From an uncultured Gammaproteobacteria bacterium (lineage in GTDB: Bacteria > Patescibacteriota > Patescibacteriia > UBA1558 > 2-01-FULL-52-15), in contig CAZIOU010000001.1 in assembly GCA_964540995.1 (NCBI GenBank), positions 6,742 to 70,741 on the forward strand: DNA of 64,000 nt, in the 5' to 3' direction. The notes beneath the pieces were generated by a model. That model did not search any database and was not told the DNA's origin. It saw nothing but the letters and a program-made list of their open reading frames with translations. A program made the position numbers and the translations under genes. Of the stretch, positions 11,693 through 43,388 are shown in pieces (the first letter of the stretch is position 1; the number at the start of each line of letters is the position of its first letter).

Positions 11693-12115
11693 CGGCAAGA
11701 AATACACCACTGAATAGGTCAACGCTATCCCAGCAACGGTCCCTACAATCACCTGCGCCGGTGTATGACCCAAACGCTCTGTCAGCACCGGATATTTATA
11801 TTCTTCAGCGTCTGGTAACTCTTTGACTAAGCGGTTAATCATGCGAGCGTGCACTCCGAGCTGACGGCGGAAACCACTGGCGTCACGGATGATCACGATG
11901 AAGAGGACAAAAGCTACGGCCAGCGCAGCATCACCTAATCCTTGATCAAGGTAGAGGAGTGTGACTAATGAAGAGGCCAAGGCAGAATGAGCCGAAGGCA
12001 TGCCACCGTATTCATTCAAATGTTCCCAAGAGAAATTACCACGGAAGAACTCCAGCAGCAGTTTGGCTAGCTGGACGACGACCATGATCCCGAAAGGTAA
12101 TAGTAATAGACGCAT
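11684..12115 (-). CDS. divergent PAP2-family (DUF212/PF02681-like) membrane phosphatase
   Basis: GGMPSAHSA motif, characteristic of the divergent PAP2 / acid phosphatase-vanadium haloperoxidase-related family; 143-aa membrane protein. Confidence 0.55.
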   Translation of the reverse strand: MRLLLLPFGIMVVVQLAKLLLEFFRGNFSWEHLNEYGGMPSAHSALASSLVTLLYLDQGLGDAALAVAFVLFIVIIRDASGFRRQLGVHARMINRLVKELPDAEEYKYPVLTERLGHTPAQVIVGTVAGIALTYSVVYFLPWI

Positions 12116-30188: not shown

Positions 30189-31879
30189 TACAGGCCAGTG
30201 TTTATATAGTTATTCATCTAGCCCTAGGCTATGGTTGGTTTAGCTTCTGGCAGGGGAGAGGTAAATCAGCCATCGACAGTGTCTTGGCGAGTTTGCTTAC
30301 CGTACTGGCGCAGACTATTGCCGGCGTATTTTTGCTAGGATTGTTGGGACTATTCTCAACGCTTACTATCTGGCTGTGGCAAATTATTGTTATCGTTGGA
30401 GTTTATTGGATCAGCCGTAAGCAATTACTAGTATCATGGCGGCTTATCTTGAGACGATCATGGTATGACTATCTGTTCTTGGTTTTGCTTACAACGGTAT
30501 CTCTGGCAACGTTAATCTTATCCTTCCGTTCGGCTGATGTTTCCTTTGATAGTTTAAATTATCACTTACCGTGGGCAGCCTATCTGTTACAAGAGGGTCG
30601 TCTTGATTATTTCCAGACGCTGATCCCGTGGATCAATGTCTATCCCAAAGCGATCGAAGCTTGGCAAGCTTGGCATCTGGCTTTGTGGCACAACCAGTCT
30701 TTGTTGCAAGTTACTAACTTAATTTTCTGGCTCTTGGGATTTGGTTCGGTCTATGCCTTAGCGCGGGAGTTTGGTATTTCTCGTTTCATTTCGTTTGTGG
30801 CAGCTATTACCTATGCAGTTACGCCATTAACTATCTTGCAGCTGCGCACCAACTATATTGATTTGGCTTTGTCGTCATTGGTTTTGCTCTTACTCTATTG
30901 GTCAGTCAAGAAATTTGATGAGTCATGGTGGCTGTGGTCCATCACCGCCGGTATCCTGATCGGTAGCAAAGCCACGATGGTTATCTTGGTGGCGCTGGCT
31001 CTCGTAGTCAAAGTCGTCAGCGGTTGGACCAAGCCCTACAAATGGCCGTGGTATGTGCTAACGATTGCCGGCTTCGGCAGCTATTTCTACGCTCGCAATT
31101 GGTGGGCCAGTGGTACGCCGATCTATCCTATCGGGCCGAAGTTAATTTCTCTCGATCAATTATTATCCGGTTCACAAGCAGCGATTCTCAAAGGCAAGCC
31201 TATGTGGGAGCAGTTGTGGATTAATTTTACTACTGTCTACGGTAATTACAGTTATCAGATGAATCCGGGCGGATTTGGTTGGTTGTGGTTACTGATCTTA
31301 TTACCAGCTTTAATTATCTTTTTATTCTGGGGATGGAGACAGCGACAGTTCCGATTGATGACTGTGGTGCTAGCCCTTGTCATCGGATTTCTGCTTATGC
31401 CGGCTAATTGGTGGTTGCGCTATGGCTTATTTGTTGTCGCAGCTGGGAGCCTATCTCTGGCTTATATACTGGCTACATTGCCACATCATTGGCGTTGGGT
31501 GGGTTGTGGCATTGTTGTGTTATTTATTATCCATAGTTGCCTGATCACTGGTTTTAGTTGGCAACGAACAGAGTTGACGCGGTATTATCCGGAATTTGGA
31601 AGTTTAGCTGCTGTCCAACAAGCGGGTAGTGTCATTGCTTACGATAGTCGGTTACAGTTACCGTTTGTCTTGTGGAATCATGATCTATCCAACCGTGTAG
31701 TCTTCGTCTCGTCAGCTGATAAATCCTACGATCAATGGATGGCAGGTCTACGCGCTTCGAAAGTACAATATATCGTCACCAAATATCCCTCGTTGGAATT
31801 GCAGCAGATCGATAGTCATAAGGCTAATTTTGAGCTGCTGGCTAGTCAGGGGGATGTGAAGGTTTGGGCGGTGAAGTAG
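30173..31879 (+). CDS. polytopic membrane protein, possible GT-C-fold glycosyltransferase (family unassigned), occupying the position where mraY is usually found
   Basis: 568 aa, about 12 TM helices plus a C-terminal soluble domain. No MraY motifs (no NxxNxxDGIDGL or HHH). Terminator hairpin at 31905-31928. Confidence 0.5.
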   Translation: MVTEIIQASVYIVIHLALGYGWFSFWQGRGKSAIDSVLASLLTVLAQTIAGVFLLGLLGLFSTLTIWLWQIIVIVGVYWISRKQLLVSWRLILRRSWYDYLFLVLLTTVSLATLILSFRSADVSFDSLNYHLPWAAYLLQEGRLDYFQTLIPWINVYPKAIEAWQAWHLALWHNQSLLQVTNLIFWLLGFGSVYALAREFGISRFISFVAAITYAVTPLTILQLRTNYIDLALSSLVLLLLYWSVKKFDESWWLWSITAGILIGSKATMVILVALALVVKVVSGWTKPYKWPWYVLTIAGFGSYFYARNWWASGTPIYPIGPKLISLDQLLSGSQAAILKGKPMWEQLWINFTTVYGNYSYQMNPGGFGWLWLLILLPALIIFLFWGWRQRQFRLMTVVLALVIGFLLMPANWWLRYGLFVVAAGSLSLAYILATLPHHWRWVGCGIVVLFIIHSCLITGFSWQRTELTRYYPEFGSLAAVQQAGSVIAYDSRLQLPFVLWNHDLSNRVVFVSSADKSYDQWMAGLRASKVQYIVTKYPSLELQQIDSHKANFELLASQGDVKVWAVK

Positions 31880-31964
31880 GGGAAGGTTAAAATACTTAAT
31901 TAAAAACAAGCCTTTGTAGGCTTTTTTTAAATTTGTCCCTTATGGCTCTCTATCGTGGAAGATG

Positions 31965-32228
31965 TTAGAACTGCGGTATTGGAGCCTGTATATTGAAGTA
32001 ATGAAGAAGCCATCCGACAATGATTAGAAAAGCTATAGTCCCAACCAAAAAAACTAACCTACGATAGACATAACTTGCAACATCCATCAGGAACCGTTGA
32101 ATAAGCTTGATAAGAAGCCAAGCATAATACAGTGGAGGCACTACAACCAAATTGACGACGGTCATTAGAATATCAGTTTTTGAACGATAACTATTGCGCA
32201 TGTTTTTAAAATGTGGATTAACGGTCAA
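31965..32228 (-). CDS. small two-TM hypothetical protein downstream of the nucleotidyltransferase operon
   Basis: 87 aa with two hydrophobic helices; 67 nt after the nucleotidyltransferase gene on the same strand. Confidence 0.25.
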   Translation of the reverse strand: MTVNPHFKNMRNSYRSKTDILMTVVNLVVVPPLYYAWLLIKLIQRFLMDVASYVYRRLVFLVGTIAFLIIVGWLLHYFNIQAPIPQF

Positions 32229-32295
32229 GCTTATACCTTAAGAACTATTTGTCAAGTAACCGGGATGAATTCCGATAGGTATGACACTTGCTTTT

Positions 32296-33624
32296 CTATA
32301 AATAGCGCTTAAGAACTACATATTGTCTGGCTTTAGCAATACAGATTCCATTTTTGATAGCATAACATTCAACAAAATGCATGCCATTAAATTTGGTATG
32401 CTCAGGCATGTTACGCGTGTGATGATCTGTAATCTCTCCGCGCGGCTCTGGAGAATTATCATCATTTTTTACTTTCCATTTATATAAAATCAAATTCCCA
32501 GTGTTGTCTGTGATGGAAAAGTTGATTCTTCTATCTACTTCAATTTGCCCATTTTTATCTAAGACGATCTCTCTGAACCCACCCTGACGAGGGAGAACTC
32601 TCGCGGTGATATTAAGTGAAAGGCTATTATCTGTAAATGTTGGAATATGTTGATCGAATAGATACTCTTCAGTTTTGCTGACACGCTTATACCGTCTACT
32701 CTTAAGTAAATCGGATACACTTATTTGTCCAATGTCTTCCAAACCAATTAAAAAAGCATCACGTGAATAGATTATTGCGTCTCTCTCAATCTGTGATAAA
32801 TGAGCAATATAATCATCAATAAATTTATTTTGGTCAGCTCTATCGGGTATCTGTGGCCTGGAGATTAAATTAGGTAACCTAAAAAAGAATTCAAAAATAG
32901 CATCAGCTGCTGTGATAGTTTTATCCTCCATAAAAATCCTATAGATCGCCTGCTCAATATGGAAAGACTTTAACTTGAACCCTTGATCTGCCTCTTTACA
33001 GTTGTGTCTCCACCTTTTAACAAATTTCACTGCCTTTCTAAAATCCGAGTTCGTTTTATTCAGGTCAGTTGCGTCTTTTATGTATCCTTTAGGATCAGAT
33101 TTTAACCACCACTCATTCTCACTTCCATAGACTCTTGAAAGTTCATCATACCGTAAACTCCTTTTTTTCTTACTTACTTGAATAATCTCTGGTACCCAAT
33201 AAATATCATCGCCATAATCATTGCTATAGCCAGAAGTAAATGCTGGGACAATATCTACAGAAAACTTTTCTTCACCCCCATTCATAAAGGAAATGGTTAT
33301 TGAGTGAGATTGCTTTGCAAATTTTATTTGATAGCTGGTAGGATTTTCAAAATTATTTGATAGCTGGCTTTCTAACTTTGAAAGTATTGATCCGGGATCC
33401 AGATTTTCGGGATCAAATTTGCCGTTTATGTATAGTACATCAATGTCGTGAAGTGGTTTTGATGCTGTGAATCGGGCATACGAACCAATTAAAATACAGT
33501 TCACTCCCAAGGCAAGTTTTAAAGCAGCGTATACACTTGTCGCAAATACTTGTTCCCCATTAGACGGGGAGAGATTTGATTTGACGTAGTCACGGAGTTG
33601 GGAATTTAAACTATCTTTTGTCAT
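32296..33624 (-). CDS. cGAS/DncV-like nucleotidyltransferase (CD-NTase/OAS-like Pol-beta superfamily NTase) with a ~130-aa C-terminal extension
   Basis: G47-S48...D60-I-D62 (ILIGSYARFTASKPLHDIDVLYI), third acidic residue in SVDIVPA (D124, ~62 aa later, as in DncV D131/D133/D193). KFVKRWR helix motif typical of the OAS/cGAS/CD-NTase helical domain. AT-rich gene in an island. Confidence 0.55.
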   Translation of the reverse strand: MTKDSLNSQLRDYVKSNLSPSNGEQVFATSVYAALKLALGVNCILIGSYARFTASKPLHDIDVLYINGKFDPENLDPGSILSKLESQLSNNFENPTSYQIKFAKQSHSITISFMNGGEEKFSVDIVPAFTSGYSNDYGDDIYWVPEIIQVSKKKRSLRYDELSRVYGSENEWWLKSDPKGYIKDATDLNKTNSDFRKAVKFVKRWRHNCKEADQGFKLKSFHIEQAIYRIFMEDKTITAADAIFEFFFRLPNLISRPQIPDRADQNKFIDDYIAHLSQIERDAIIYSRDAFLIGLEDIGQISVSDLLKSRRYKRVSKTEEYLFDQHIPTFTDNSLSLNITARVLPRQGGFREIVLDKNGQIEVDRRINFSITDNTGNLILYKWKVKNDDNSPEPRGEITDHHTRNMPEHTKFNGMHFVECYAIKNGICIAKARQYVVLKRYL

Positions 33625-34138
33625 AGGGCGATACGAGTGCCAGATTAAGAAGAAGCGTTAAGAGACGTGCAGAGGAATTACACATTTCAAAATAGATATG
33701 TTGCTGAAACTTACTCATATGTTCGCTTGAGATTCTATTTTCTGGTTTCGCAAGGATTATCAACGGTATCTTTTTTACTTTTGCTGTCGCAACCAAGTCT
33801 GGGTAAAATTCGTATGAACCAGAGTATTCAGCCACGTAAATCGCAAAATCCTCGAATGTCTGTAATTGATCAAGTCCCGCTGAGATATCATAAACTCGCT
33901 CTACCTTTGAGAAAAGACCGTTCTTATTTAACATCTCCATTTCTGTTTCAAGCGCATCTTGATTTGTTTTTAGAAGATAAACTTTTCGCTTTAAATTTCT
34001 GAACATACGAATTTCTTTCTTAAAGAAAAAACGTAAAAAGACAAAACACGTGATTGTACCGATACTAAAATAGAATAAAAAAGTAAAGAGCGCATAAATA
34101 TCGAGTGCGGTCGTTATATTCTCCCAAGAGAAGCTCAT
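33611..34138 (-). CDS. small N-terminally membrane-anchored protein, translationally coupled to the nucleotidyltransferase (candidate effector or partner)
   Basis: 175 aa; a ~30-residue hydrophobic N-terminus (1-2 TM), then a ~135-aa alpha/beta-looking domain. Its stop overlaps the nucleotidyltransferase start by 14 nt. Confidence 0.5.
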   Translation of the reverse strand: MSFSWENITTALDIYALFTFLFYFSIGTITCFVFLRFFFKKEIRMFRNLKRKVYLLKTNQDALETEMEMLNKNGLFSKVERVYDISAGLDQLQTFEDFAIYVAEYSGSYEFYPDLVATAKVKKIPLIILAKPENRISSEHMSKFQQHIYFEMCNSSARLLTLLLNLALVSPYDKR

Positions 34139-34209
34139 ATTCGCGGTGTTAATAAATTAATTTTTCTCACAAGGGGGAGATATTTACACGATACCTCCCC
34201 CATTTATAC

Positions 34210-35421
34210 TTACTCAATCAGAGCTAACTTAAGACCCTCATAGCAGCCGCGCCACAAGGAAATCTCCTTACCTAATTTATTGGGATTTCTATGTTCAAGC
34301 GCTCTCTCGCAAACTCGCAGTGCCAATAAGGTTCCATGTTTCTCAAATACATCGAAAGGATTGTGTGACCATTCGTATCGATCGCCACGATCTTTAATAA
34401 GAGCTCGAAAAGCTGCAAGTATAGGATAGATAAAACCACTTGGAATCCCATAGTTAGAAGATTCGTCGATGAAGTAGAGATCATAACTGGCTTTCTTTTT
34501 GTAAGTAACACCAGTGAAACGACCAAATCTGCCGCCGCTCTTAAGCTCGGCCACATCCTTATTTGAATCGAGCTGATTAACACTCTTATTATAGAGTTTT
34601 GGCAGACCTTCATAGATCATATCCCTCAAACGCAAGATATCCTTAAGTAAAGGATACAATTTATTCATCTCTTTGTGGTTCTCACTGAAGTGATTTAACG
34701 CAGCAGCCTTTGAAACGTAGGCAACGGATGGTTGCCTATCCTGTCCAAAATTCTTTGCGTCAAAACAAATCAAATAGGAAATGATATCGCGGATATCAAT
34801 CGGTTTTTTTGCATCGTCAGAATACAATTCATTCTCTTTGAATGCTATAAGATCAAAATACGACTCTCCTCGCAAGGCATCTTTGAGTGGATTAAAATCA
34901 CCCTGTAAATTCATCAATGATTGGTCTTTGACCTGAGTAGATGTATTACGCGCGTCCACAATATCGACTATATCTTCGACCTCGCTGAAGCCTTCCATGA
35001 TTTCCAGCTTAAGGTATAGGCTATCTCTTTTTTCTGGCGGTAGATCATTCAACTCGTCGATTAAGATTTTACAGGTGTGACCACCATCAAGTAACCCATG
35101 CTTACTCTTATCAGTCATGGTGAGAGTTAAAACACCACGCTGATTATCAAATTCTATTTTGTCAGCCATCACTACAAGTCCGCGATTCTTAAACATAAAC
35201 ATGTCGGGGCTGTGTTCTGCTGATTCTGCAATTTTCTTTGCTACCCGAGATGTAGTCTTTGGATCTCGAGGGTTAATACCTCGCCAATCATAGAGGTCTT
35301 TAAGGAACAAATCGGCTTTTGCTATTGCCGAATAAAAACGCACACCTTGTTGGTCAAGGGGTGTTTCAAGTCTCCTTACGGAGAATGTATCTATGTTGAG
35401 ATTCATATAATTATGACTCAA
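34210..35421 (-). CDS. hypothetical 403-aa protein with a ParB/DGQHR-like motif (GLLDGGHTCKILI); first gene of the nucleotidyltransferase operon
   Basis: hhDGxH[RT]xxhh resembles the DndB/ParB-Srx DGQHR motif. No other family recognised. AT-rich. Confidence 0.45.
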   Translation of the reverse strand: MSHNYMNLNIDTFSVRRLETPLDQQGVRFYSAIAKADLFLKDLYDWRGINPRDPKTTSRVAKKIAESAEHSPDMFMFKNRGLVVMADKIEFDNQRGVLTLTMTDKSKHGLLDGGHTCKILIDELNDLPPEKRDSLYLKLEIMEGFSEVEDIVDIVDARNTSTQVKDQSLMNLQGDFNPLKDALRGESYFDLIAFKENELYSDDAKKPIDIRDIISYLICFDAKNFGQDRQPSVAYVSKAAALNHFSENHKEMNKLYPLLKDILRLRDMIYEGLPKLYNKSVNQLDSNKDVAELKSGGRFGRFTGVTYKKKASYDLYFIDESSNYGIPSGFIYPILAAFRALIKDRGDRYEWSHNPFDVFEKHGTLLALRVCERALEHRNPNKLGKEISLWRGCYEGLKLALIE

Positions 35422-35588
35422 GTTATTTAATTAATAACTGTGACCCCGACTTAAGGTTACCCTGTAAGCCGATTTAAGAGTCTAAGGGTTGCCCCTGTAG
35501 ACAATTGAGTTTTTAACGATCACTTGGAATTTAGTATCTACCTTTTGTAGAATTTGTCAAGGGTCAGGCTTTATGTTAGCCTGCGTCT

Positions 35589-35843
35589 ATGCCTCAAGAT
35601 CCAACATTCAAAGAAGATGGTAAGCGTCGTATATTCTGTGCCGCTTGCAGGCGTCACATCACTGATAGCTACCTGGGAGAAAAGAATACACGAAATATCC
35701 GCTGTAAAGGCTGCAAGTCAGTAAACATTGTATTCCCTCCCAGAAAAGGTGATATAGATGGCCAGAAGGTAATTTTGTTTGGTCCAGGCCAATCCATATT
35801 TACTGCTGATTTGACAGAATCCGAAATAGAAGATAGTCTGTAA
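35589..35843 (+). CDS. Com-like zinc-ribbon protein (Mu Com translational-regulator family)
   Basis: IFCAACRRH...NIRCKGCKSVNIVF matches the Com pattern (RCPHCNKLL...IKCPRCKALNHV). Divergent from the defence-like operon. Terminator hairpin at 35893-35943. Confidence 0.45.
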   Translation: MPQDPTFKEDGKRRIFCAACRRHITDSYLGEKNTRNIRCKGCKSVNIVFPPRKGDIDGQKVILFGPGQSIFTADLTESEIEDSL

Positions 35844-36815
35844 TTGACTTTAAAAACCGAACAGGGTTATAAAGGGTCGAAAGACCAAAGAGAACCCGCA
35901 AAGCATATACCTTCTCGCAAGGCATAGCTTTGCGGGTTTTTTGTTTGTCATGGGGATTTAGAAATGCTGATTTATCCCCATGAGTCAGCATTTTTTAGTT
36001 CAGTAATGTTACTCAATGTTACCAGTAGAAGCTATAGAAGAATTCAAGATTATCTACTCAAAAATACTTGGGGTTGCGTTGGATACCCCTGAAGCGCTGA
36101 AAAAGGCCGAAAATCTTTATAATCTGATTAAAGTCGTTTATCAAAAACCCATAGATCCCCAAAGAAAAACAGGGGTATAGGGACTACAAAGATGATTTGC
36201 AGAAACCAAAATTGTTCAAAAAAATAGCCAAACAAAGTCAAACAAAAATCGTCGCGGATACGGCCCGCCCGACGTTAAATAGGCTGGACTGCACACTGGG
36301 GAGCGGACTACCTTACATCAGATAAAAACTGATGCCTAACAATTCCGCACGTCACTTTTTTTAAGCAGGTGACGGAGGGAAATAGTTAACTTATGAGTAT
36401 CTATGAAAAATCTAAAAGAAAATCAAGGTTTAGCGATCTTGTTAGGATTGATCCTAAGCAAAAGCTATTTCTCCGTAAGCATAAGGACTGTCGGACTATG
36501 GCGGGGTTCTTGGATAAGATCATTAACCGCTATAAACGGGACATGCGTAGCGCTACAAAAGATTACAAAAACCGACAAAACCGGAGTGTTGATTTCAAGT
36601 CTTAATAACCCCACTTTTAGGGCCAATTATAGAGAAAGAGACTCTGAAAAAGTGTTGGTTGATTTAACCACTTTTGTAGTTTATAATGTTGATACAATTA
36701 AATATCGCACGCTAATGCATTCAGAAGCCCTCATCAGGCCTTGCATTAGCGTGCGGAACGATAGCAATATCGTTAAAACTGGTGGGGGCCTTTTAGTTCC
36801 CACGGAAAGGAAAAT

Positions 36816-37322
36816 ATGAACGAACAAAATCAAGCGAAATCAGGCAAGAAGTGGTATCAAAAATGGTGGGTTATAGCCCTTCTGCTGATGTTTTTCTATG
36901 GGCTCGGTAAAATGGCTCTGGAGCTGCCAAAGACCTCTACAGAGGCGTCACAATCGGCCACAGAGGCTCCCCAAAAAGTTGCCTATGAGGTAACAAAAGA
37001 ATGGGCAATACCTAATGGCGGTAAAGGGATGGTAATAGTGCTTTCGCCGGATAAGGTTAATCTCTCTGACATGGAACGATTGGGAGAGCAATTACGTGAG
37101 GCGGCTAAGTCCGACAGGGTTGGAAATGTGGTAATTTTTTCCGATAAGGCCACTGCTCAACAATATGATAATTCATTGAATTTAATTGAAGAGGAAAAAG
37201 TCAATTACCTCAAGCACTTAGTTGGGGTTTATAACAAAAACGTGAATACTGGTAGTCATGAATTTAGTATTTACTTGGATGGAATTGATGGAGCTGTAAC
37301 AAAAAAGATTCAATACGAATAA
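36816..37322 (+). CDS. hypothetical membrane-anchored/secreted protein
   Basis: 168 aa; RBS ggaaaggaaaat; N-terminal TM (WWVIALLLMFFYGLG); 6 nt before the recombinase gene. Confidence 0.5.
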   Translation: MNEQNQAKSGKKWYQKWWVIALLLMFFYGLGKMALELPKTSTEASQSATEAPQKVAYEVTKEWAIPNGGKGMVIVLSPDKVNLSDMERLGEQLREAAKSDRVGNVVIFSDKATAQQYDNSLNLIEEEKVNYLKHLVGVYNKNVNTGSHEFSIYLDGIDGAVTKKIQYE

Positions 37323-37328
37323 TGTAAA

Positions 37329-38987
37329 ATGTCATCTAAGTATTTTATCTACGCGCGCAAATCCTCCGAAGCTGAAGATCGGCAGGTTTTATCTATTGAG
37401 TCTCAAATCGATGATTTAACTGCTTTAGCAAACAAGCAGGGTTATCAGATTGCTGACATTTTGACTGAGGCAATGTCTGCGAAAGCTCAGGGTAGGCCTA
37501 TCTTCACATCTATGATAGAGAGAATTACAGCTGGTGAGGTAAGGGGTATTATTTGTTGGAAAGTTGATCGGCTGGCGCGAAATATGATAGATGGCGGTTG
37601 GGTTATGGATAGTCTTCAAAATGGTGTTATAGAGCATATAGTGACCCCTGAGCGCGAATATAGGCCCAAAGATAATGTACTACTAATGTCTGTCGAATTC
37701 GGAATGGCTAATCAGTTTATTCGTGATCTAAGCTCAAATGTGAAACGTGGCATACGAAAGAAAATAGAAAAAGGTCAGCTCCCTGGCGTCGCACCTTTGG
37801 GGTATATGAATCAAAAGAATCGAGAGACGGCCGAGAACCAGATTATGCCTGACCCTGATCGTTTTCAGATGATGCGGATGCTTTTTGATGAATTCTTAAA
37901 GGGTACTCACACAATTCGTACCCTGCAGGGGTTGGCACATGATTGGGGTTTCCGTAGTCCACAGAAAAGAAAAGTCGGAGGAAACTTTATGGGATCAAGT
38001 ACTGTCCACAGAATACTCACTAACCCCTTCTATTGTGGTTTTCTAAGATTTAATGGAGACATTCATAAAGGCTCACATCAGCCCATGATTACTGTAGACG
38101 AGTTTGATCGTATTCAGTTAATACTTGGGAGAAAAGGGAAGCCTCGGCCACAAAAGCATAAATTCCCATTTACAGGGATTATGGAGTGTGGCGAATGCGG
38201 AGGCAGTGTGACGGCAGAGATAAAGAAAAAGAGCTTAAAGTCAGGCGAAGTAAAATTCTACACTTACTATCATTGTACAAAGCGACTTAATCCTATGTGC
38301 ACTCAAGCATGTATTGAAACAGCCGAATTAGAGAAACAGATTGAGAGCTACTTAGAATCCATCACTATTCCTGAAGAGTTTAAAGACTGGGCTATTAGAT
38401 GGCTCAATAAGCTTAACGATCAAGAGATCAACCACAGGTCAACAATTTATATAAACCAGCAAGATACGAGAAATAAAATTCAGAACGATGTTGATGAATT
38501 AACAAAGATGAGGTTTAGAAATCTCATCAACGATGAAGAGTATATAAAACAAAAAAACCTACTTCTTAAAGAGTTGAGAAGTATGGACGAAAGACTACGA
38601 GATACTGAAGATCGTGCGTCTAAGTGGCTGGAGCTATCTGAAAAGACTTTCGATTTAGCTTGCTATGCAAAGTCATGGTTTCAAATTGGCGATATAGAGC
38701 AACGTCGCATGATTTTGACCTCACTTGGTTCGCACCAAGTGTTATTTAACAAGAAACTTACAATTACCTTGGATAAACCATTGTCAATCATCAGTGATAC
38801 GGCTGAAGAGATACGCGCAGATTGCACTCGGTTAGAACCAGAGAAAATACTGTCAGGACAAACAAAAAACAGAGCTTCAGACTCCATTTCTTCTCGATGG
38901 CTCCCCACACGGGACGGAGTTCGAACCTTTTCTAATTCAACCATGAAGCCTGAATCTCGTCTAGGCAGGCAGAAAAGAAAGGTATGA
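37329..38987 (+). CDS. large serine recombinase (phage-integrase type, resolvase/invertase catalytic domain + recombinase + zinc-ribbon + coiled-coil)
   Basis: FIYARKSSEAEDRQ...IICWKVDRLARN (catalytic Ser domain); CGECGG...YYHCTK zinc ribbon; coiled-coil C-terminus; 552 aa. Confidence 0.85.
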   Translation: MSSKYFIYARKSSEAEDRQVLSIESQIDDLTALANKQGYQIADILTEAMSAKAQGRPIFTSMIERITAGEVRGIICWKVDRLARNMIDGGWVMDSLQNGVIEHIVTPEREYRPKDNVLLMSVEFGMANQFIRDLSSNVKRGIRKKIEKGQLPGVAPLGYMNQKNRETAENQIMPDPDRFQMMRMLFDEFLKGTHTIRTLQGLAHDWGFRSPQKRKVGGNFMGSSTVHRILTNPFYCGFLRFNGDIHKGSHQPMITVDEFDRIQLILGRKGKPRPQKHKFPFTGIMECGECGGSVTAEIKKKSLKSGEVKFYTYYHCTKRLNPMCTQACIETAELEKQIESYLESITIPEEFKDWAIRWLNKLNDQEINHRSTIYINQQDTRNKIQNDVDELTKMRFRNLINDEEYIKQKNLLLKELRSMDERLRDTEDRASKWLELSEKTFDLACYAKSWFQIGDIEQRRMILTSLGSHQVLFNKKLTITLDKPLSIISDTAEEIRADCTRLEPEKILSGQTKNRASDSISSRWLPTRDGVRTFSNSTMKPESRLGRQKRKV

Positions 38988-39157
38988 ATCTGTCAAAGGA
39001 GGACCTTGACGAACTCAAGGAAATTTATTTTAAGGAGACTAGAAAGAGGCTTACGGATGACGAAGCTCTAGCTATGGCACGTCAGCTGTTTCGAGTCTAT
39101 AGGGTTTTATATAGTAGAAAGCCAAACCAGCCAGCTGACCCCATTCTAGACAAATAA
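38984..39157 (+). CDS. small ORF (57 aa) translationally coupled (ATGA) to the serine recombinase; possible accessory/directionality factor
   Basis: MNLSKEDLDELKEIYFKETRKRLTDDEALAMARQLFRVYRVLYSRKPNQPADPILDK. Below the 60-aa cutoff of the ORF track. Confidence 0.25.
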   Translation: MNLSKEDLDELKEIYFKETRKRLTDDEALAMARQLFRVYRVLYSRKPNQPADPILDK

Positions 39158-39245
39158 CCCAATCTCTGGTATTGCTACTTTGTTGTTAATTCTCTCCAGC
39201 CTTCTGCCTACGCATGGTGCGCAGTCAGCATTTCTGGAGGGAATT

Positions 39246-39644
39246 GTGAAACGCTTTGCTCTTCTGTCCTTTAGCTTACTCTGCCTAGCTTTCACGGCTC
39301 TGGTCGGATTCCACATCGGACAAGGAACTGCCACGGCCCAGAGCGGACTGATGTCGACCTCGGCAGTCGTGACCGTCGGCTTTCAAAAAGCTCTCCTGGT
39401 CAATGGCGAAATCTGGAAACTCGAAATCGGCGCAGGCTGGTTAAATACCGGCCAGTCTTCACCAGTCCCGGTCACAGACGTTGTCTTTCTCTTCGAAACA
39501 GATGGCTCCGACCCGGCCATTATCGATCGAAGTGGAAACGGATGGGGTTATCGCAATAATCACTGGACAAACTACGGACCGCCACCCGTTGCTGTGACAA
39601 CACAGCCGACCACCTGGAGCGCCATCAAGGCGCAGCACAGGTAA
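39246..39644 (+). CDS. GC-rich secreted hypothetical protein (GTG start)
   Basis: RBS ggaggg; signal peptide KRFALLSFSLLCLAFTALVG; perfect hairpin terminator cggccagcttcgc gat gcgaagctggccg at 39652-39680. Confidence 0.4.
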   Translation: MKRFALLSFSLLCLAFTALVGFHIGQGTATAQSGLMSTSAVVTVGFQKALLVNGEIWKLEIGAGWLNTGQSSPVPVTDVVFLFETDGSDPAIIDRSGNGWGYRNNHWTNYGPPPVAVTTQPTTWSAIKAQHR

Positions 39645-39822
39645 AACCAAGCGGCCAGCTTCGCGATGCGAAGCTGGCCGTTGAACATTTTAAATACAGT
39701 TAGGTAGGATGCTCTTGAAGAGCTTAAGAAGATTCATCTCGAGGAAACCGTGAAGATACTGGCTGAGAATCAGGCGCTGACTATTGCAAGGAATTTGTTT
39801 GCTCTGGTTAAAGCTCTTGGCT

Positions 39823-40818
39823 CTAGGCGCGACCCTGACGCCTAGCGTCAGACCATGGCTTCTCATATTTCTCGTAATACTCTCTTTCAAGTAATCCGGG
39901 GTGGAGACTTCCATCAAGCATTTTCTGCATAACTTCTCTGTTACTACCATAAGCAAACTCAATAGCATGGGACGCAATCAGAATGTTGAACAACCTCACG
40001 ACCTTATCTTGCGCGGAAAATAGTGCCTCTCTCTTGATCTTCGTTGAACCCATCGGATATGTCAATTGAATTAGAATCTCTGGCGTGAGTGCGAAGTATT
40101 TATTTCTATCTAAAAAAGTTGGACCATAAAAAGTCTTTGGTGGCAGCCACCACTCCACGATTGGAGAGTCAGAAGTGATGAATTGCTCATTGCCCTTAGC
40201 AATATATATTTTCCATTTCATTCCATAGAACATATTCGCGAAGCCCGGACCACCAAACCCTAAGTGTGTGGTCATAAATTTGAGATGTTGCGCGTTACTG
40301 ACACGCAAATCCCAGTTATCACTTCTCATAAACTCTAAGAGGTCATCTTTTTCCTTCTCTGTCATGACTTTCCCGGTATCCTTCAGATATTTGTTAATGG
40401 TCTCACGATCAAACCAGTTAATCATAACTTTCGCTGCCTGCTTTTCATAAGATTGGATTTGCTCTCTCATGGCTGGTGAACGTAGCCACATCAAACTCAT
40501 AAAGACTGAAAGAATGTATTTGTCCGTGTCGTCTAAATATTGATAGTCAACAATCTTCTTAATGATTACTGGAAGTTCCTTGGCGATCGCATCCTCAAAT
40601 TGATTTAGCCAGGATTCAACTTGCTGTGACACCTCATCTGGCTCACCTGTTCTTCCGGCATAATAGTAGTGTTTATAACCAATGCCTGACGTCGGTTTCG
40701 GATTGCTTAGACGTTTATTCTTTAGGTCTAGCGGATGCAGCTTACCATCTTCATCAGTAAACCTTCTCAGATAGAACTGAGGCACATAATGTTGTTTTTT
40801 TGTTTCCGTGTCCGCCAT
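39823..40818 (-). CDS. DUF4238-family protein
   Basis: N-terminus KQHYVPQFYLRRF, typical of DUF4238; 331 aa. Confidence 0.55.
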   Translation of the reverse strand: MADTETKKQHYVPQFYLRRFTDEDGKLHPLDLKNKRLSNPKPTSGIGYKHYYYAGRTGEPDEVSQQVESWLNQFEDAIAKELPVIIKKIVDYQYLDDTDKYILSVFMSLMWLRSPAMREQIQSYEKQAAKVMINWFDRETINKYLKDTGKVMTEKEKDDLLEFMRSDNWDLRVSNAQHLKFMTTHLGFGGPGFANMFYGMKWKIYIAKGNEQFITSDSPIVEWWLPPKTFYGPTFLDRNKYFALTPEILIQLTYPMGSTKIKREALFSAQDKVVRLFNILIASHAIEFAYGSNREVMQKMLDGSLHPGLLEREYYEKYEKPWSDARRQGRA

Positions 40819-40961
40819 AGAGTCGTAATAGCAAGTTATTACGGCAGGGTCAACCTAATAGGTTGAGATCTCTATCGCCCTTTTTTGGTTATCCACACCT
40901 CCCCGTACACATTCTACTTTAACCCATCTAGACGGACATAAAAAAACAGCCTTTTCAGACT

Positions 40962-40990
40962 TGGCTCACCATTAGGGATTCGAACCCCTA
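40962..40990 (-). pseudogene. orphan tRNA 3' fragment (T-arm + acceptor 3' strand + CCA), possible integration-site remnant
   Basis: Reverse complement TTAGGGGTTCGAATCCCTAATGGTGAGCCA; no complementary 5' acceptor strand or D/anticodon arms could be found upstream. Confidence 0.35.
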
Positions 40991-41048
40991 ATTATGAATT
41001 GCGTATTCCCAATTACGCCTTACGCTTTACGTATTACGATCTATAAAC

Positions 41049-41123
41049 TGGTGACCCTACCGGGAATCGAACCCGGATTGCAAGGTTGAGAACCTTGTGT
41101 CCTAACCGTTAGACGATAAGGCC
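41049..41123 (-). tRNA. tRNA-Glu (anticodon CUC), CCA encoded
   Basis: Hand fold: acceptor GGCCUUA/UAGGGUC, D-stem GUCU/GGAC, anticodon stem CAAGG/CCUUG with loop UUCUCAA, T-arm CCGGG-UUCGAUU-CCCGG, A73, CCA. Confidence 0.85.
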
Positions 41124-41130
41124 GTATTTG

Positions 41131-41244
41131 CGGTGCTTGGTACTAGCTGCTTGGTGCTCGGAAATCGTTACCGGATCGTGAATACCGAATTCCTCTCTTC
41201 CCAGTCCCGAGTAACGAGTACCTAGTACCTAGTACCTAGTACCG
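41131..41244. repeat. GC-rich palindromic intergenic element (family copy 6), with (CCTAGTAC)x3 tandem and a TAACTAATAAC tail
   Basis: ggtgcttggtactagctgcttggtgctcggaaatcgttaccggatcg...cccgagtaacgagtacctagtacctagtacctagtacc. Confidence 0.65.
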
Positions 41245-41337
41245 AACTAACTAATAACAAATAACACTTTCTTCAATTCTTTTCAAGTCCCAAATAAAAC
41301 CCGCCTAAGTTGTTTAGGCGGGGATAGGTTCGGCTCG

Positions 41338-41730
41338 TCAGCTGAAGCCTTTCTTGGCTGGTATCAGCCACAGCGGTTGACGCAGGATGACCGACAGTGA
41401 GTCACCGAAATAGAAGTAGGGATCGCTCGTCAGACCGATAGTACGACCATACTGACGCAGTGCCTTTGCTTCTGTCGGCCCATGCGCCATTTCGATCTGA
41501 TAAATGACGGCCTGGAAGGCGATAATGGCCTGCTTGCGCTGGACTCGGAGGCTGTCAACTTGTGTTTGCAGTGACTGCACACGATGCCGATACTGTTCGG
41601 TCTGCGCAACGGCTGCGAGGCCAGTGAGACCGAGGACGTACCCGATGATTATAACCATGTTGCGACGCACGGCTTGGCTCCTTCGGATAGGTAGAGTAGT
41701 AAGGAACGATACACTGAAATCGTAGTCCAA
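41338..41730 (-). CDS. hypothetical small membrane-anchored protein (GC-rich)
   Basis: ORF with an internal Met followed by a TM segment, MVIIIGYVLGLTGLAAV. Confidence 0.3.
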   Translation of the reverse strand: MDYDFSVSFLTTLPIRRSQAVRRNMVIIIGYVLGLTGLAAVAQTEQYRHRVQSLQTQVDSLRVQRKQAIIAFQAVIYQIEMAHGPTEAKALRQYGRTIGLTSDPYFYFGDSLSVILRQPLWLIPAKKGFS

Positions 41731-41797
41731 CAGGCTACTTTGTCAATGCTGGATTAAAAAAAAGGGACTCGATTACTCAAGTCCCTTGCGTCATAGG

Positions 41798-42022
41798 CTA
41801 GCCTCCTGGATCGTTGCAGTTGCAGGGTCCGGATGGAAATCGGCGTTGATTACATGTGGAGCAGATAGCGTAACTACAGCGGCCGTTCGGCAAACTTCTC
41901 CAAGCAGAGAAATAATATTCTGCACCGCAGGAGCTACAAACAAAAGTTGATTCCCAGTCGTTGGTATTTGTCTGTCGATCTGCTTCACATTTGGTTACAT
42001 ATCCGGTGCATTGATAGCTCAT
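41798..42022 (-). CDS. hypothetical Cys-rich small protein (10 Cys in 74 aa)
   Basis: CTGYVTKC...CSSC...C..C..C...CNC pattern. Confidence 0.3.
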   Translation of the reverse strand: MSYQCTGYVTKCEADRQTNTNDWESTFVCSSCGAEYYFSAWRSLPNGRCSYAICSTCNQRRFPSGPCNCNDPGG

Positions 42023-42103
42023 ATGACACTCCTTGGAGCAAAGAAAGCGGGACAGCTGTCGCTGTCCCGCCCAAGTGTACTACTCCAACTAGTTTGTCGG
42101 AGA

Positions 42104-42466
42104 TTACAGGTCATCATCGAGGTCGAGCTCGAAGACATCGTCTCGCAGTTTTCGTTTTGAACCAGGGATTTGATTCAGATCGTCATCAAGATCGAAACGT
42201 GTCTTTGTTGCTCCGAATGCTTGAGGATGGCTGTCACTAGAGTGCCGATGAAGTCGATCAAATCGATCCTCGAAACGATCGCCATCGACGTCGAAAGTGA
42301 CTCGTTCAACAATGGGCAGATCGAGAGGTTCTGGGTCGATGGGCTCGATTGGTTTCACCAAGTCATCCTTGAATTTCCGGCTGCGCTGACCGTAGGGGTC
42401 GGTTGCATCAACTGGATTCAGTTCGTGGGTGACGTGTGGTCTCATGTCTCTCATCGGGAAGGGCAT
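42104..42466 (-). CDS. hypothetical acidic, low-complexity protein
   Basis: 120 aa, Asp/Glu-rich (DLDDDL repeats); GC-rich. Confidence 0.3.
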   Translation of the reverse strand: MPFPMRDMRPHVTHELNPVDATDPYGQRSRKFKDDLVKPIEPIDPEPLDLPIVERVTFDVDGDRFEDRFDRLHRHSSDSHPQAFGATKTRFDLDDDLNQIPGSKRKLRDDVFELDLDDDL

Positions 42467-42698
42467 GGTGAACTCGCTTTGCTGATATTGACCGGTATCA
42501 TCTACTCAGACATTTGCCGAGTAGAAAAATTGTTAAAAGATCTAATAATTATATTATGGTATATATGCTTTAATCCGTCAATGTTATTGTCAAGAGCTAT
42601 TTTACTAGCAAAAATCACTAGTTTTGACCGATGAATTTGGTGGTGCAAATAGACTGTAAATTGATTTTTGCCAGCGTACTTGATAATATCAAATAACT

Positions 42699-43388
42699 AT
42701 GTCTGAAATTATTAGCGTACCTCGACACATCGGCATCATCCCCGACGGTAATCGTCGCTGGGCCAAGGCCAAGGGCTTACCAAGCCTCAAAGGCCACGAG
42801 GCTGGCTTCAAAGTATTGCCATCAGTGGCTGAAGCGGCCTTTGATGCTGGAGTGGAGGTGTTCTCAGCTTGGGGCTTCTCGACTGAGAATTGGAATCGTA
42901 CTGCTGAAGAAGTGTCCTATCTGATGGATCTTTTTATTCATTACTTAGGTCAAGAAGCCAACGAATTGCATCAGAAAAATATCAAATTATTAGTGAGCGG
43001 TTCACGAGCAGAGTTGAGCGACAAGCTGGTGCAGGCTATCGAGCAGGCAGAGCAACTGACAGGTAATAATAGTAGAGGAGTGATCAACGTTTGTCTGAAT
43101 TATGGTGGTCGACAGGAATTGGTAGATGCGGTCAATGGATTAATCAAAGAAGGCAAGACGGCAGTTACGGCCGACGATCTTACACGCCATTTGTATCATC
43201 AATTACCTGACTTAGACCTGATTATCCGCACAGCAGGGGAGCGGCGGTTGTCTGGCTTCATGCCGTGGCAGGGAATCTACAGTGAACTGTATTTTAGCGA
43301 CAAGCTATGGCCAGATTTCTCACCTGATGACTTGCACGCGGCGCTGCAAGATTTCGCCAATCGTAAACGCACCTTTGGTGGAAATTGA
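42699..43388 (+). CDS. uppS: ditrans,polycis-undecaprenyl-diphosphate synthase
   Basis: IPRHIGIIPDGNRRWAKAKGL... cis-prenyltransferase signature; 229 aa. Confidence 0.9.
   Translation: MSEIISVPRHIGIIPDGNRRWAKAKGLPSLKGHEAGFKVLPSVAEAAFDAGVEVFSAWGFSTENWNRTAEEVSYLMDLFIHYLGQEANELHQKNIKLLVSGSRAELSDKLVQAIEQAEQLTGNNSRGVINVCLNYGGRQELVDAVNGLIKEGKTAVTADDLTRHLYHQLPDLDLIIRTAGERRLSGFMPWQGIYSELYFSDKLWPDFSPDDLHAALQDFANRKRTFGGN

Follow-up and report, generated by a model that had tools for sequence, protein, structure and literature searches.

The window analyzed here, a stretch of 64,000 nt, contains a block of about 9 kb between a gene at 30173-31879 and a tRNA-Glu gene, which raises the question of how this block was assembled and at which site. 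A sequence-only reading had taken it for a single island whose integration was targeted to tRNA-Glu. At the level of sequence comparison, the block was confirmed as a real strain-specific island, and its gain as accessory DNA via site-specific recombination is supported. Its outer limits had been placed nearly exactly, as homology to relatives is lost at 31970 and regained at ~40940-40962 (flank comparison); a terminator-like hairpin (31908-31923) does lie 3' of the 30173-31879 gene, and every gene previously named is present. The AT richness noted earlier was likewise found, with a GC content over 31949-38903 below that of all 7-kb windows outside this segment (0.436 to 0.481). The island appears to be composite, with two units (E1 and Eb) stacked in one tRNA-like attachment site, in agreement with the mosaic acquisition that had been suggested. 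We consider it probable that 31943-40990 as a whole represents a two-unit array occupying a single attachment site that is old, tRNA-like, and almost palindromic. The core TGGCTC is common to three co-oriented sites, S1 (31943), S2 (38898), and S3 (40962):

31921-31973, plus strand: S1, left junction, attL-type, core TGGCTC at 31943-31948
31949-38903: E1, recombinase-bearing integrative element, 6,955 bp, GC 0.391, with L001 and 10 L088-type contigs lacking it between the same flanks
38874-38928, plus strand: S2, junction within the recombinase 3' end, core TGGCTC at 38898-38903
38904-40961: Eb, recombinase-less unit, 2,058 bp, GC 0.453
40936-40990, plus strand: S3, right junction, core TGGCTC at 40962-40967

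Relatives without the recombinase block, with which the island was to be compared, were found. The comparators are metagenome assemblies or bins throughout, and their taxon labels are unreliable, as L001 is labeled Gammaproteobacteria and L002 Komeilibacteria. Eleven close-relative contigs (L001 and the ten L088-type contigs, L088-L097) have the same flanks and no recombinase block. The L001 flank protein is 91% identical to that of the window, while the flank of the L088-type contigs, which come from different samples, is 94.6% identical at the nucleotide level. The order in these contigs is the 568-aa gene, then S1, then a short unit, and the recombinase occurs in none of them. A 75% identical large serine recombinase (LSR) is present at the same S1 in L003 with other cargo (SNF2/HNH and a CHAT-like protein), and a 74% identical LSR lies between enolase and tRNA-Gln in L004, where the cargo is SNF2/HNH and a KAP NTPase. 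L004 and L001 share one assembly, in which an E1-type element is located at the tRNA-Gln CCA end and S1 is empty. In the window, L003, and L004, the left junction reads [local arm]-TGGCTC-TCTAT[CT]GTGGA[AG]GATGTTAGAA and the right junction [LSR 3' coding]-TGGCTC-[local arm]; the right local arm of L004 is an intact tRNA-Gln beginning exactly at the core. The flanks of the window and L003 are 84-85% identical at the nucleotide level and the LSR genes only 73%, a comparison given here in support of independent acquisition of the two elements.

At S1, a chromosomal arm (..AAATTTGTCCCTTA) is followed by the core and the element arm P'a (TCTATCGTGGAAGATGTTAGAAC), and homology to L001, L003, and L088 ends at 31970 on this side. 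P'a follows the same left arm in L003 and a different left arm in L004. Its score of 29.9 bits is circular, because the matrix was built from these same arms (background, 0 to 7 random matches of at least 12 bits per shuffled window). At S2, the core joins arm P1, which is recombinase coding sequence, to P'b (CCCACACGGGACGGAGTTCGAAC), whose sequence agrees with the right arm of the L001 S1, an empty site; recombinase homology between the window and L004 ends at the S2 core, where the tRNA-Gln of L004 starts. At S3, a terminator-like arm X precedes the core and B0' (ACCATTAGGGATTCGAACCCC), a 5'-truncated pseudo-tRNA that corresponds to the orphan tRNA fragment of the sequence-only reading. B0' is kept in L001, L003, and L088, with a different arm X in each, and arm X of S3 is nearly the same as the arm left of the L004 element (27/29 nt alike by eye). 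Positions 2 to 12 of B0' mirror the S1 left arm at 9/11 to 10/11 positions around the nonpalindromic TC. The old attachment site would have read B0-[TC]-B0' (..TCCCTTATGGC TC ACCATTAGGGATTCGAAC..); none of the relatives compared had a B0-B0' site that was truly empty.

The zinc-ribbon-domain motif of LSR sites lies at positions 16-24 in attP and 11-19 in attB (Rutherford et al. 2013, PMC3783163). Half-site positions 12-19 are ATTCGAAC in the tRNA-type right arms (L004 tRNA-Gln and S3), and positions 17-24 are GTTAGAAC or GTTCGAAC in the element-type arms (P'a and P'b). In element-type arms, the T-loop-like motif of the right arm is displaced outward by 5 bp, in line with the attP/attB rule for LSRs; no clear motif of this kind was seen in the left arms. 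In L088, the right arm of S1 equals the right arm of S3 plus a 5-nt insertion. Under the 5-bp rule, both arms of S2 are element-type and S1 of the empty relatives is attL-type. The apparent entry of E1 was therefore into a hybrid site, a combination not accepted by canonical serine integrases. Such an entry would call for either a more permissive enzyme or formation of the array via another route.

Under canonical LSR rules, attL can recombine with attR whereas attP cannot recombine with attL (PMC3783163), and this favors an alternative in which the whole 9-kb S1-S3 array is mobile and entered B0-B0' in one integration as a canonical attL/attR pair. S2 would then be an internal relic, and the differences between genomes would reflect internal cargo exchange. 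This reading, which resembles the originally proposed single island minus the role of tRNA-Glu, fits with the outer limits given for that island, with the mirrored outer arms (S1 left, S3 right), and with an attL-type S1 and a possibly attR-type S3 under the 5-bp rule. However, L001 and the L088-type contigs retain S1, Eb-type content, and S3 and lack exactly the S1-S2 segment. Furthermore, the E1-type unit of L004 is joined straight to tRNA-Gln with no Eb, and the E1 variants of the window and L003 diverge more than their flanks. We regard mobility of the whole array as rather unlikely.

Within the two-unit array, E1 is probably a small integrative element that carries a type I CBASS operon and an AIPR gene and is moved by its own LSR. 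It comprises the following features:

31965-32228, minus strand: 87-aa membrane-type ORF adjoining the P'a arm, 40% identical to the ORF beside the internal P'a copy in L004
32296-33624, minus strand: CBASS cyclase, a CD-NTase with a C-terminal AGS_C sensor domain (PADLOC PDLC00785, 1.2e-165)
33611-34138, minus strand: CBASS single-transmembrane effector, overlapping the cyclase start (PADLOC C3a59 (TM), 1.8e-14; Effector 1TM, 4.6e-7)
34210-35421, minus strand: AIPR (abortive-infection-type) protein (Pfam PF10592, 4.7e-30)
35589-35843, plus strand: 84-aa four-cysteine zinc-ribbon protein, conserved element core, with homologues (~32% identity) in the corresponding place in L003 and L004
36016-36180, plus strand: s54, 54-aa small helical protein, paralogue of the 57-aa ORF
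36393-36605, plus strand: 70-aa conserved core ORF, 55% identity over 49 aa to L004 9042-9305
36659-36813, plus strand: promoter-like site and three-hairpin leader, preceding the 168-aa ORF and the recombinase
36816-37322, plus strand: 168-aa protein with an N-terminal membrane helix, conserved core, N-terminal part 66-83% identical in L003 and L004
37329-38987, plus strand: LSR, 552 aa, full length, identified by Pfam domains

The genes described earlier as an NTase operon form a type I CBASS pair (PDLC00785 cyclase and 1-TM effector) followed by AIPR. The cyclase also matched Pfam AGS_C (3.3e-14) and SMODS (5.6e-5; at 23.9 bits slightly below the 26.5-bit cutoff), and a GS...DxD motif is seen in its translation. 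CBASS and AIPR are gene kinds annotated as abortive-infection anti-phage defense. The 84-aa ORF has the CxxC...CxxC pattern but no Pfam Com match (best only phrog_6417, "translational regulator," E = 0.058), and its former label as Com-like is therefore unsupported. Family searches gave no match for the 87-aa, 70-aa, and 168-aa ORFs. In at least 15 metagenomic loci, tblastn detected relatives of s54, a candidate directionality factor or regulator, at a distance of 100-300 nt upstream of the gene for the recombinase. The promoter scan returned TTGATT-17-TATAAT, and the leader (36706-36803; fold, -46.6 kcal/mol; z, -4.76) is almost invariant across L003 and L004, where a single stem change is compensatory; it was not found in more distant loci and had no Rfam match. 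No recognizable transfer or replication genes were found in the 7 kb of E1.

Cargo varies in every genome between conserved flanks, and a 2,863-bp SNF2/HNH module, 99.6% identical between L003 and L004, is flanked by two P'a copies that could provide homology. Both observations would suit a hypervariable defense hotspot reshuffled by homologous recombination between the flanks, with the recombinase as an inert passenger. However, the breakpoints coincide, with single-nucleotide precision, with a 6-nt core whose arms have LSR-type geometry, the same ends recur at an unrelated locus beside tRNA-Gln, and the LSR ORF is intact in the window, making such reshuffling improbable.

The earlier assignment of the 552-aa protein as a large serine recombinase holds, with Pfam matches to Resolvase (4.9e-20), Recombinase (4.5e-11), and Zn_ribbon_recom (8.6e-8); Y8, R10, and S12 of the catalytic motif are invariant in alignment A1. 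The final 28 codons lie past the S2 core. Homologues numbered 4,156 at E <= 1e-20. Where metagenomic loci had room after the LSR, a convergent tRNA followed in 42/68 and a codirectional tRNA in 0/68. Among LSRs 40-50% identical, 39 of the 74 complete ORFs end inside the convergent tRNA, 10-151 nt into it and with the frame fixed. TGG, the CCA complement, is an in-frame Trp codon in 21 of these ORFs, and the C-termini W-L-P-G-x-D-S-N represent a backward translation of the tRNA 3' end. The LSR belongs to a large, apparently undescribed group whose members integrate at tRNA gene 3' ends; a literature search found no prior description of tRNA-targeting LSRs.

As the right-hand site of the recombinase lies inside its own gene (38898), the 57-aa ORF, the GC-rich ORF, and DUF4238 would form a separate recombinase-less unit, and their former grouping into a single island does not stand:

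38984-39157, plus strand: s57, 57-aa ORF, first Eb gene, 4-nt overlap with the recombinase stop
39180-39644, plus strand: 154-aa GC-rich (0.54) membrane or secreted-type ORF
39823-40818, minus strand: DUF4238 protein (Pfam, 5e-40; PADLOC candidate "DUF4238-Pers," 2.3e-15)

The overlap agrees with the coupling to the recombinase previously ascribed to s57, which is 61% identical to a 56-aa ORF of L003 and akin to the 57-aa ORF of L088 and to s54. The 154-aa ORF had no family match and is followed by a 13-bp hairpin (39652-39680), in keeping with the terminator attributed to it; the DUF4238 call was also borne out. The Eb arms are kept in relatives and the cargo varies (193 aa in L001, 56 + 385 aa in L003, and 57 + 255 aa in L088).

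The tRNA gene beside the block had been correctly recognized, as had a tRNA-like 3' fragment at 40962-40990 (TGGCTCACCATTAGGGATTCGAACCCC):

41049-41123, minus strand: tRNA-Glu(CTC), intact neighbor (ARAGORN; Rfam, 61.7 bits)

In reverse complement, the fragment reads as a T-arm, acceptor strand, and CCA, and it was called a tRNA by neither ARAGORN nor Rfam. A classical tRNA-targeted island, inserted into tRNA-Glu with the fragment as its displaced 3' end, would be consistent with the position of the block within 60 nt of the tRNA-Glu 3' side and with the location of some same-clade LSRs at tRNA-Glu(CTC) in other metagenomes (L016 and L059). However, the tRNA-Glu 3' 25-mer has no second copy at <=3 mismatches, the tRNA is inverted in the relatives closest to the window (L088-type and L002) with the island borders S1 and S3 unmoved, and there is no tyrosine integrase. 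tRNA-Glu was thus rejected as the attachment site. The fragment was likewise rejected as a copy of its 3' end, as the acceptor and T-stem sequences differ. This reading is already contradicted and very improbable. The fragment was also not made by E1 insertion, and so is not the scar it had been taken for, because it is conserved in recombinase-less relatives; it represents the right half of the old attachment site, which has been conserved as a half-site. A prophage remnant or assembly chimera is hardly credible, for although LSRs are frequent phage integrases, no PHROG match had an E value below 0.008 or involved a structural protein, searches of viral contigs found neither the recombinase nor the P' arm, and the S1 junction and flank synteny recur in independent assemblies.

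In the two-unit array, the recombinase would cut the shared core at its central TC. The element-side site would straddle the final ~30 codons of the gene encoding the recombinase, so that in the integrated state the ORF would leave the element and stop in target-side DNA. In the wider clade, the natural target would be the tRNA gene 3' end (last acceptor bases, discriminator, and CCA), with the T-loop TTCGAAC probably being the motif read by the zinc-ribbon domain. In the window, the target would have been the left-hand junction of Eb, the resident unit, and not a live tRNA, with E1 presumably arriving second. The predicted E1 circle junction is ..TTCTTCTCGATGGCTCTCTATCGTGGAAGATG.., and E1 may still be active.

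E1 resembles phage and element LSR systems (A118/LI, Bxb1, phiC31, and SPbeta) in its three-domain recombinase, in short sites without long direct repeats and with a nonpalindromic central dinucleotide, and in the 5-bp shift of the outer motif between element-type and target-type half-sites. In contrast to these systems, the island targets tRNA 3' ends or tRNA-like relics and not protein-coding genes, and E1 is a 7-kb element with defense cargo and no phage genes. Its crossover would fall within the very sequence that encodes the recombinase, and the C-terminal tail would therefore vary with the integration state.

In SCCmec and other SCC elements, CcrAB serine recombinases act at the 3' end of rlmH. 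Several units can be stacked in one site, bounded by co-oriented site copies; some are recombinase-less (pseudo-SCC) and presumably moved in trans, and hybrid sites are tolerated. The island shares the stacked units, co-oriented site copies, recombinase-less unit, and apparent hybrid site, with homology considered at the LSR domains only, but has a tRNA-like target instead of rlmH, one recombinase instead of a Ccr pair, and another host lineage. SSV-type archaeal integrases share with E1 an element-side site within the integrase gene and a tRNA target. These are tyrosine recombinases whose gene is split on integration into the tRNA, whereas E1 would swap only the last ~30 codons and its enzyme would stay whole.

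Tycheposons of Prochlorococcus are cargo or defense elements in tRNA-adjacent arrays, and their element maps include partial tRNA genes (bioRxiv 10.1101/2020.12.28.424599, Fig. 2 legend); the island is similar in both respects. However, tycheposons overwhelmingly use tyrosine recombinases, with a large serine recombinase instead in 27/937 (bioRxiv 10.1101/2020.12.28.424599), and many carry replication genes, whereas the E1 clade is all serine-type and E1 has no recognizable replication gene.

Among the relatives of the window, the region from 31943 to 40990 is variable in content. These relatives were found by a genome scan with the 568-aa flank protein, which gave two contigs, and by cluster look-ups, which gave twelve more, of which ten were retrieved; exact-protein look-ups for the window flank protein, the window large serine recombinase (LSR) and the protein P0001 gave no match. 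In L001 (flank protein 91% identical), homology to the window extends until 31970 and resumes at 40962, and the approximately 1 kb between these breakpoints carries an unrelated 193-aa ORF. The closest relatives, ten L088-type contigs from several aquatic metagenomes (flank 94.6% identical at the nucleotide level, tRNA-Glu 100%), carry only a 57-aa and a 255-aa ORF in the island position, and L002 (labelled Ca. Komeilibacteria; flank protein 64% identical) has a different segment of approximately 1 kb there. L001, L002 and the window have no cargo in common in their variable segments. The sequence-only reading had proposed an integrative island, as opposed to a gene order conserved as core in all relatives. 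As the gene order is not core in all relatives, the island is real.

The left flank is a cell division and cell wall cluster (RsmH, PBP transpeptidase, Mur ligase and the 568-aa protein, which is of no known family), and the right flank starts with UppS. The best-named relatives of the flank and of the LSR are Patescibacteria/CPR bins, with one bin labelled Gammaproteobacteria, and the putative host assignment is drawn from these named relatives. The variable slot of L002 also includes a GC-rich, structured-looking segment (11780-12070) with no Rfam match at E<=0.1. Beyond the tRNA, what looks like a second variable segment lies between tRNA-Glu and UppS. These 1.57 kb of the window (41124-42699) are missing from L088-type contigs and matched only in part in L003 (41248-41750), and none of the ORFs that they contain (130, 120 and 154 aa) matches a family.

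The previously called ORFs were found in place. Island genes and their matches are as follows.

32296-33624, minus strand: CBASS cyclase (PADLOC, 1.2e-165; AGS_C, SMODS)
33611-34138, minus strand: single-TM effector (PADLOC TM models, 1.8e-14)
34210-35421, minus strand: AIPR (PF10592, 4.7e-30; 105.8 bits versus a cut-off of 25)
37329-38987, plus strand: LSR, 552 aa (Pfam PF00239, PF07508, PF13408)
39823-40818, minus strand: DUF4238 (PF14022, 5e-40, 138.1 bits versus a cut-off of 27; PADLOC DUF4238-Pers, 2.3e-15)

As in type I CBASS, a CD-NTase cyclase is accompanied by an adjacent effector, and neither Cap2/Cap3 nor HORMA/TRIP13 accessory genes were detected by Pfam or PADLOC among the ORFs neighbouring the pair. 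The AIPR ORF matched no PADLOC model. The recombinase-bearing unit, E1, supplies CBASS and AIPR; genes of both kinds are annotated as abortive-infection defence, which, judged by homology only, would be their function here. A homologue of the CBASS cyclase (tblastn, 48% identity over the first 64 aa) also occurs at a recombinase-clade locus in L087 (14451-16440). The 84-aa ORF at 35589-35843 had been read as Mu Com-like, a reading that was not borne out: no Pfam Com model matched at E<=5, the best lead was phrog_6417 (E=0.058), and a four-cysteine zinc-ribbon pattern is the sole feature in common with Com. Likewise, the small core ORFs had no significant match in Pfam, PHROGs or PADLOC. A prophage was rejected, as PHROGs gave no structural or packaging match for the seven island ORFs scanned, all of them small or unannotated, and the remaining island ORFs have no phage-type Pfam match. 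No recognisable transfer genes were found in the island.

The borders of E1 were located by comparison with close relatives of its recombinase. LSR homologues numbered 4,156 at E<=1e-20, including two close ones. The contigs that carry them derive from public runs, JGI 3300013121 for L003 and SRR8797212/13 for L004 to L006. P0002 (75% identical, in L003) shares both chromosomal locus and left border with the window, and its cargo differs (SNF2/HNH helicase, 315-aa protein, CHAT-like protein). P0003 (74% identical, frameshifted; L004 to L006) comes from the same assembly as L001 and lies between enolase and tRNA-Gln/pyrG with SNF2/HNH and KAP NTPase cargo. A pattern search gave two junctions at these loci.

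Left junction (window 31943, L003 2236, L004 2082): locus-specific arm, TGGCTC, conserved arm P'a (TCTAT[CT]GTGGA[AG]GATGTTAGAA)
Right junction (window 38898, L003 11573, L004 11581): last conserved LSR codons (arm P1), TGGCTC, locus-specific arm

The right locus-specific arm of L004 is an intact tRNA-Gln, the CCA end of which is the TGG of the core. L001 and L088 have a single site in which the window left arm is joined to an arm resembling the window right arm; it reads GTCC[CA]TTA TGGCTC GCCA....GGAC..AGTT[CA]GAAT. From this junction set, including the single-site contigs, E1 therefore spans 31949-38903 (6,955 bp). Its GC content is 0.391, compared with 0.436-0.481 in all 7-kb windows outside. 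In the window, three co-oriented sites with the core TGGCTC delimit two units: S1 (31943) and S2 (38898, in the 3' end of the LSR gene) bound E1, and S2 and S3 (40962) bound the recombinase-less unit Eb. A position matrix derived from the arms found strong copies in the 64-kb window at 31949 and 38904 only, scores that are circular because both arms were in the training set; nothing else in the window exceeded 15 bits, and shuffled windows gave 0-7 matches at a 12-bit threshold. A repeat search across 31000-42500 found no meaningful flanking direct or inverted repeats, as expected of a serine recombinase. Relatives of the LSR or of the P'a arm were not present in the viral contigs searched. 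The predicted P1-P'a junction of an E1 circle would read ..GACTCCATTTCTTCTCGATGGCTCTCTATCGTGGAAGATGTTAGAAC... Many metagenomic contigs (L012, L020, L025, L032, L057, L058 and others) stop less than about 100 nt past the recombinase gene, at or inside a tRNA, and such ends would fit assembly breaks at strain-variable junctions.

The island had been read as integrated next to the tRNA-Glu(CTC) at 41049-41123 (minus strand), and the orphan fragment at 40962-40990 as a scar of tRNA-targeted integration. This tRNA-Glu is the single tRNA placed by ARAGORN and by an Rfam scan of 30000-43000, and it is a neighbour, not the target. Its 3' 25-mer is unique within 3 mismatches, the acceptor and T-stem sequences of the orphan fragment differ from it, and in L088-type contigs and L002 it lies on the other strand beside UppS with S1/S3 unchanged. 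These opposite-strand copies (L088 13365-13439, 100% identical; L002 12851-12925) lie 88 nt from UppS; a simple inversion was rejected as their cause, the gene order being incompatible. L003 has an intact tRNA-Glu of the L002 sequence type (13589-13663). At 13374-13384 it also repeats 11 nt of the 3' end of the window-type tRNA-Glu (TGGTGACCCTA), fused to unrelated DNA, which points to another recombination scar, at tRNA-Glu itself. In textbooks, tRNA genes are the targets of tyrosine integrases; an island of that classical type was rejected here, as the island ORFs have no Phage_integrase match and a distal tRNA 3' repeat is absent. By eye, an anticodon-arm-like hairpin (GCGTA / TACGC, loop ATTGGGAA) occurs at 40991-41048 on the minus strand, and because of it the orphan fragment may be what is left of a decayed tRNA, namely its 3' two-thirds, without the 5' acceptor strand and D-arm. 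Homology of this pseudo-tRNA between L088 and the window stops directly past the T-loop.

Half-sites were numbered outward from the TC of TGGC[TC]. The left arm of S1 mirrors the right arm of S3 at 9 of 11 positions in the window and at 10 of 11 in L001, including positions that vary in other arms, and the two look like halves of one old palindromic site, B0-B0', with the orphan tRNA fragment as B0'. tRNA-type right arms (tRNA-Gln of L004, S3) carry ATTCGAAC at positions 12-19, and the element-type arms P'a and P'b carry GTTAGAAC or GTTCGAAC at positions 17-24. Indeed, the S1 right arm of L088 equals the S3 right arm plus five bases (GCCATTAGGGA-CGCAG-TTAGAAT versus GCCATTAGGGA-TTCGAAC). For the Listeria LI/A118 integrase, attP has its zinc-ribbon-domain motif at 16-24 and attB at 11-19 (PMC3783163). 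This 5-bp attB/attP offset was found in right arms only, and left arms showed no clear outer motif. Because the offset matches the LI/A118 rule, we infer that TC would be the crossover dinucleotide and the T-loop-like heptamer the zinc-ribbon-domain motif; S1 would be attL-type, S2 element-type in both arms, and S3 target-type in its right arm. The conserved GTTCGTGCAC of many P arms was rejected as a DNA motif, as it is coding sequence for a conserved peptide, VRAHW, and is wrongly spaced for such a motif.

Overlap with tRNA 3' ends recurs across the LSR clade. In an alignment of 24 homologues, Y8, R10 and S12 are invariant, and C-termini such as WLPGQDSN, WGGQRELNP and WHGRQDLNP are tRNA 3' ends translated in reverse complement (TGG is the complement of CCA, and GAT TCG AAC is the T-loop). 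Of 80 metagenomic loci fetched with this alignment, 68 extend far enough past the match; a convergent tRNA follows the LSR in 42 of these, and a co-directional one in none. More than half of the complete ORFs (39 of 74) end 10-151 nt within the tRNA, in a fixed frame. In 21 of these 39, the TGG complementary to CCA is read in frame as Trp; for the majority of the remaining tRNA-overlapping ORFs, the tRNA end placed by ARAGORN lacks CCA and falls in frame 2. The tRNAs concerned are those for Asn, His, Gln, Ser, Glu, Tyr, Asp, Trp and Ala. A further C-terminal type, W-x6-[VIAL]-R-T or a close variant, ends 30 of the best 120 homologues and is a translated element-type arm; the LSRs of the window (WLPTRDGVRT) and L003 belong to it. 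Cargo upstream of clade LSRs includes DNA methylases, Toprim/primase, Rep-O, BREX parts, DUF4238 and CHAT, a sample that certainly takes in some chromosomal genes.

Many clade loci encode a helical protein of about 55 aa at 100-300 nt 5' of the recombinase gene, and this family has relatives in L007, L010, L015, L018, L024, L027, L028, L047, L053, L065, L069, L071, L074 and L079. The window has two paralogues, s54 (36016-36180, in E1) and s57 (38984-39157, the first gene of Eb), and the family is a candidate directionality factor or regulator.

Directly 5' of a 168-aa ORF and the recombinase, a promoter-like TTGATT-17-TATAAT is followed by a three-hairpin leader (36659-36813) with a 14-bp perfect stem, a compensatory change in the second stem in L003 and a fold z-score of -4.76. 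The leader is nearly invariant in L003 and L004, whereas the recombinase genes are only 72-75% identical. The 3' half of the called 138-aa ORF that overlaps it (36403-36819) is probably not a gene. The leader had no Rfam match, and a clade-wide RNA was rejected, as the covariance model matched three close elements only.

The arms of Eb, which holds the 57-aa ORF, a 154-aa GC-rich ORF and DUF4238, are conserved among the window, L003, L001 and L088, and its cargo differs. Arm X, left of S3, is a terminator-like hairpin that differs between the window, L001 and L003, and in L088 it shows no obvious hairpin; B0' is conserved right up to the core in all four. An SNF2/HNH module of 2,863 bp, bounded by the P'a arm and a second P'a copy, is 99.6% identical between L003 (2236-5096) and L004 (2082-4944) at different loci, whereas the LSR genes of these contigs are only 72% identical. 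A terminator and CTGACCT, without the TGGCTC core, lie before the second P'a copy. From these comparisons of Eb, X and the SNF2/HNH module, units have therefore been moved or exchanged independently. Between the window and L003, the flanks are 84-85% identical, compared with 73% for the LSR genes; because the latter are more diverged, this argues that E1 variants entered S1 more than once. As in an SCC-like array, co-oriented site copies delimit units, some of them recombinase-less (S1-S3; Eb in L001 and L088; the SNF2 unit in L003 and L004).

On the favoured reading, the array arose stepwise. Eb or its ancestor would have occupied B0-B0', and E1-type elements would have entered the left junction of Eb afterwards. 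One weak point of this proposal is that canonical serine integrases, unlike the proposed E1 entry, do not insert into hybrid sites. An unoccupied B0-B0' site was not found among the relatives compared. Alternatively, the whole array possibly excises as S1 x S3, that is, attL x attR. Returning to stepwise stacking, we tentatively offer a broader scheme, which we consider rather improbable in its entirety. A large and widespread serine-integrase clade, mostly in uncultured lineages such as Patescibacteria, would be specialised on tRNA 3' ends, with the T-loop as zinc-ribbon-domain motif and the element-side site within the final codons of the integrase gene. In the window's lineage, the enzyme would also maintain an array comparable to an integron or SCC, in which recombinase-less defence cassettes, each with a P'-type and a terminator-type arm, would be added and swapped in trans at a palindromic site of tRNA origin, with s54/s57 as directionality factor.

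Of particular interest are the use of tRNA targets at clade level and the placing of the element-side site within the recombinase gene. A 2020 survey found t(m)RNA genes used by only 14 of 297 serine-integrase elements and called such use unreported (PMC7192596), and tRNA is absent from the main text of the large 2022 LSR discovery paper. Our literature search on tRNA-targeting serine integrases, including CPR/Patescibacteria, had incomplete coverage and found no description, an outcome that does not show that none exists. The end of the integrase ORF lies within the tRNA, so clade targets can be read from the sequence; the resulting natural series of integrase/target pairs, built on one conserved scaffold, is of use in studying serine integrases and in giving them new targets. 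The island also represents a route by which CBASS, AIPR and other defence genes may spread among small-genome uncultured bacteria, and the apparent use of hybrid sites in stacking units bears on how strict the directionality control of serine integrases is.

All sequence-level features of the LSR family that were tested are present, namely the domains, the short dyad sites and the 5-bp offset of the right arms. The core that the sites share is just TGGCTC, and the arms mirror around the non-palindromic TC. SCC elements use the rlmH 3' end and Ccr-type recombinases; this island instead occupies a tRNA-like site between the 568-aa gene and tRNA-Glu. Overall, it is not a tyrosine-type tRNA island, a prophage or an SCC element, and the systems closest to it in working are SCC composite islands and the tRNA-adjacent arrays of tycheposons.
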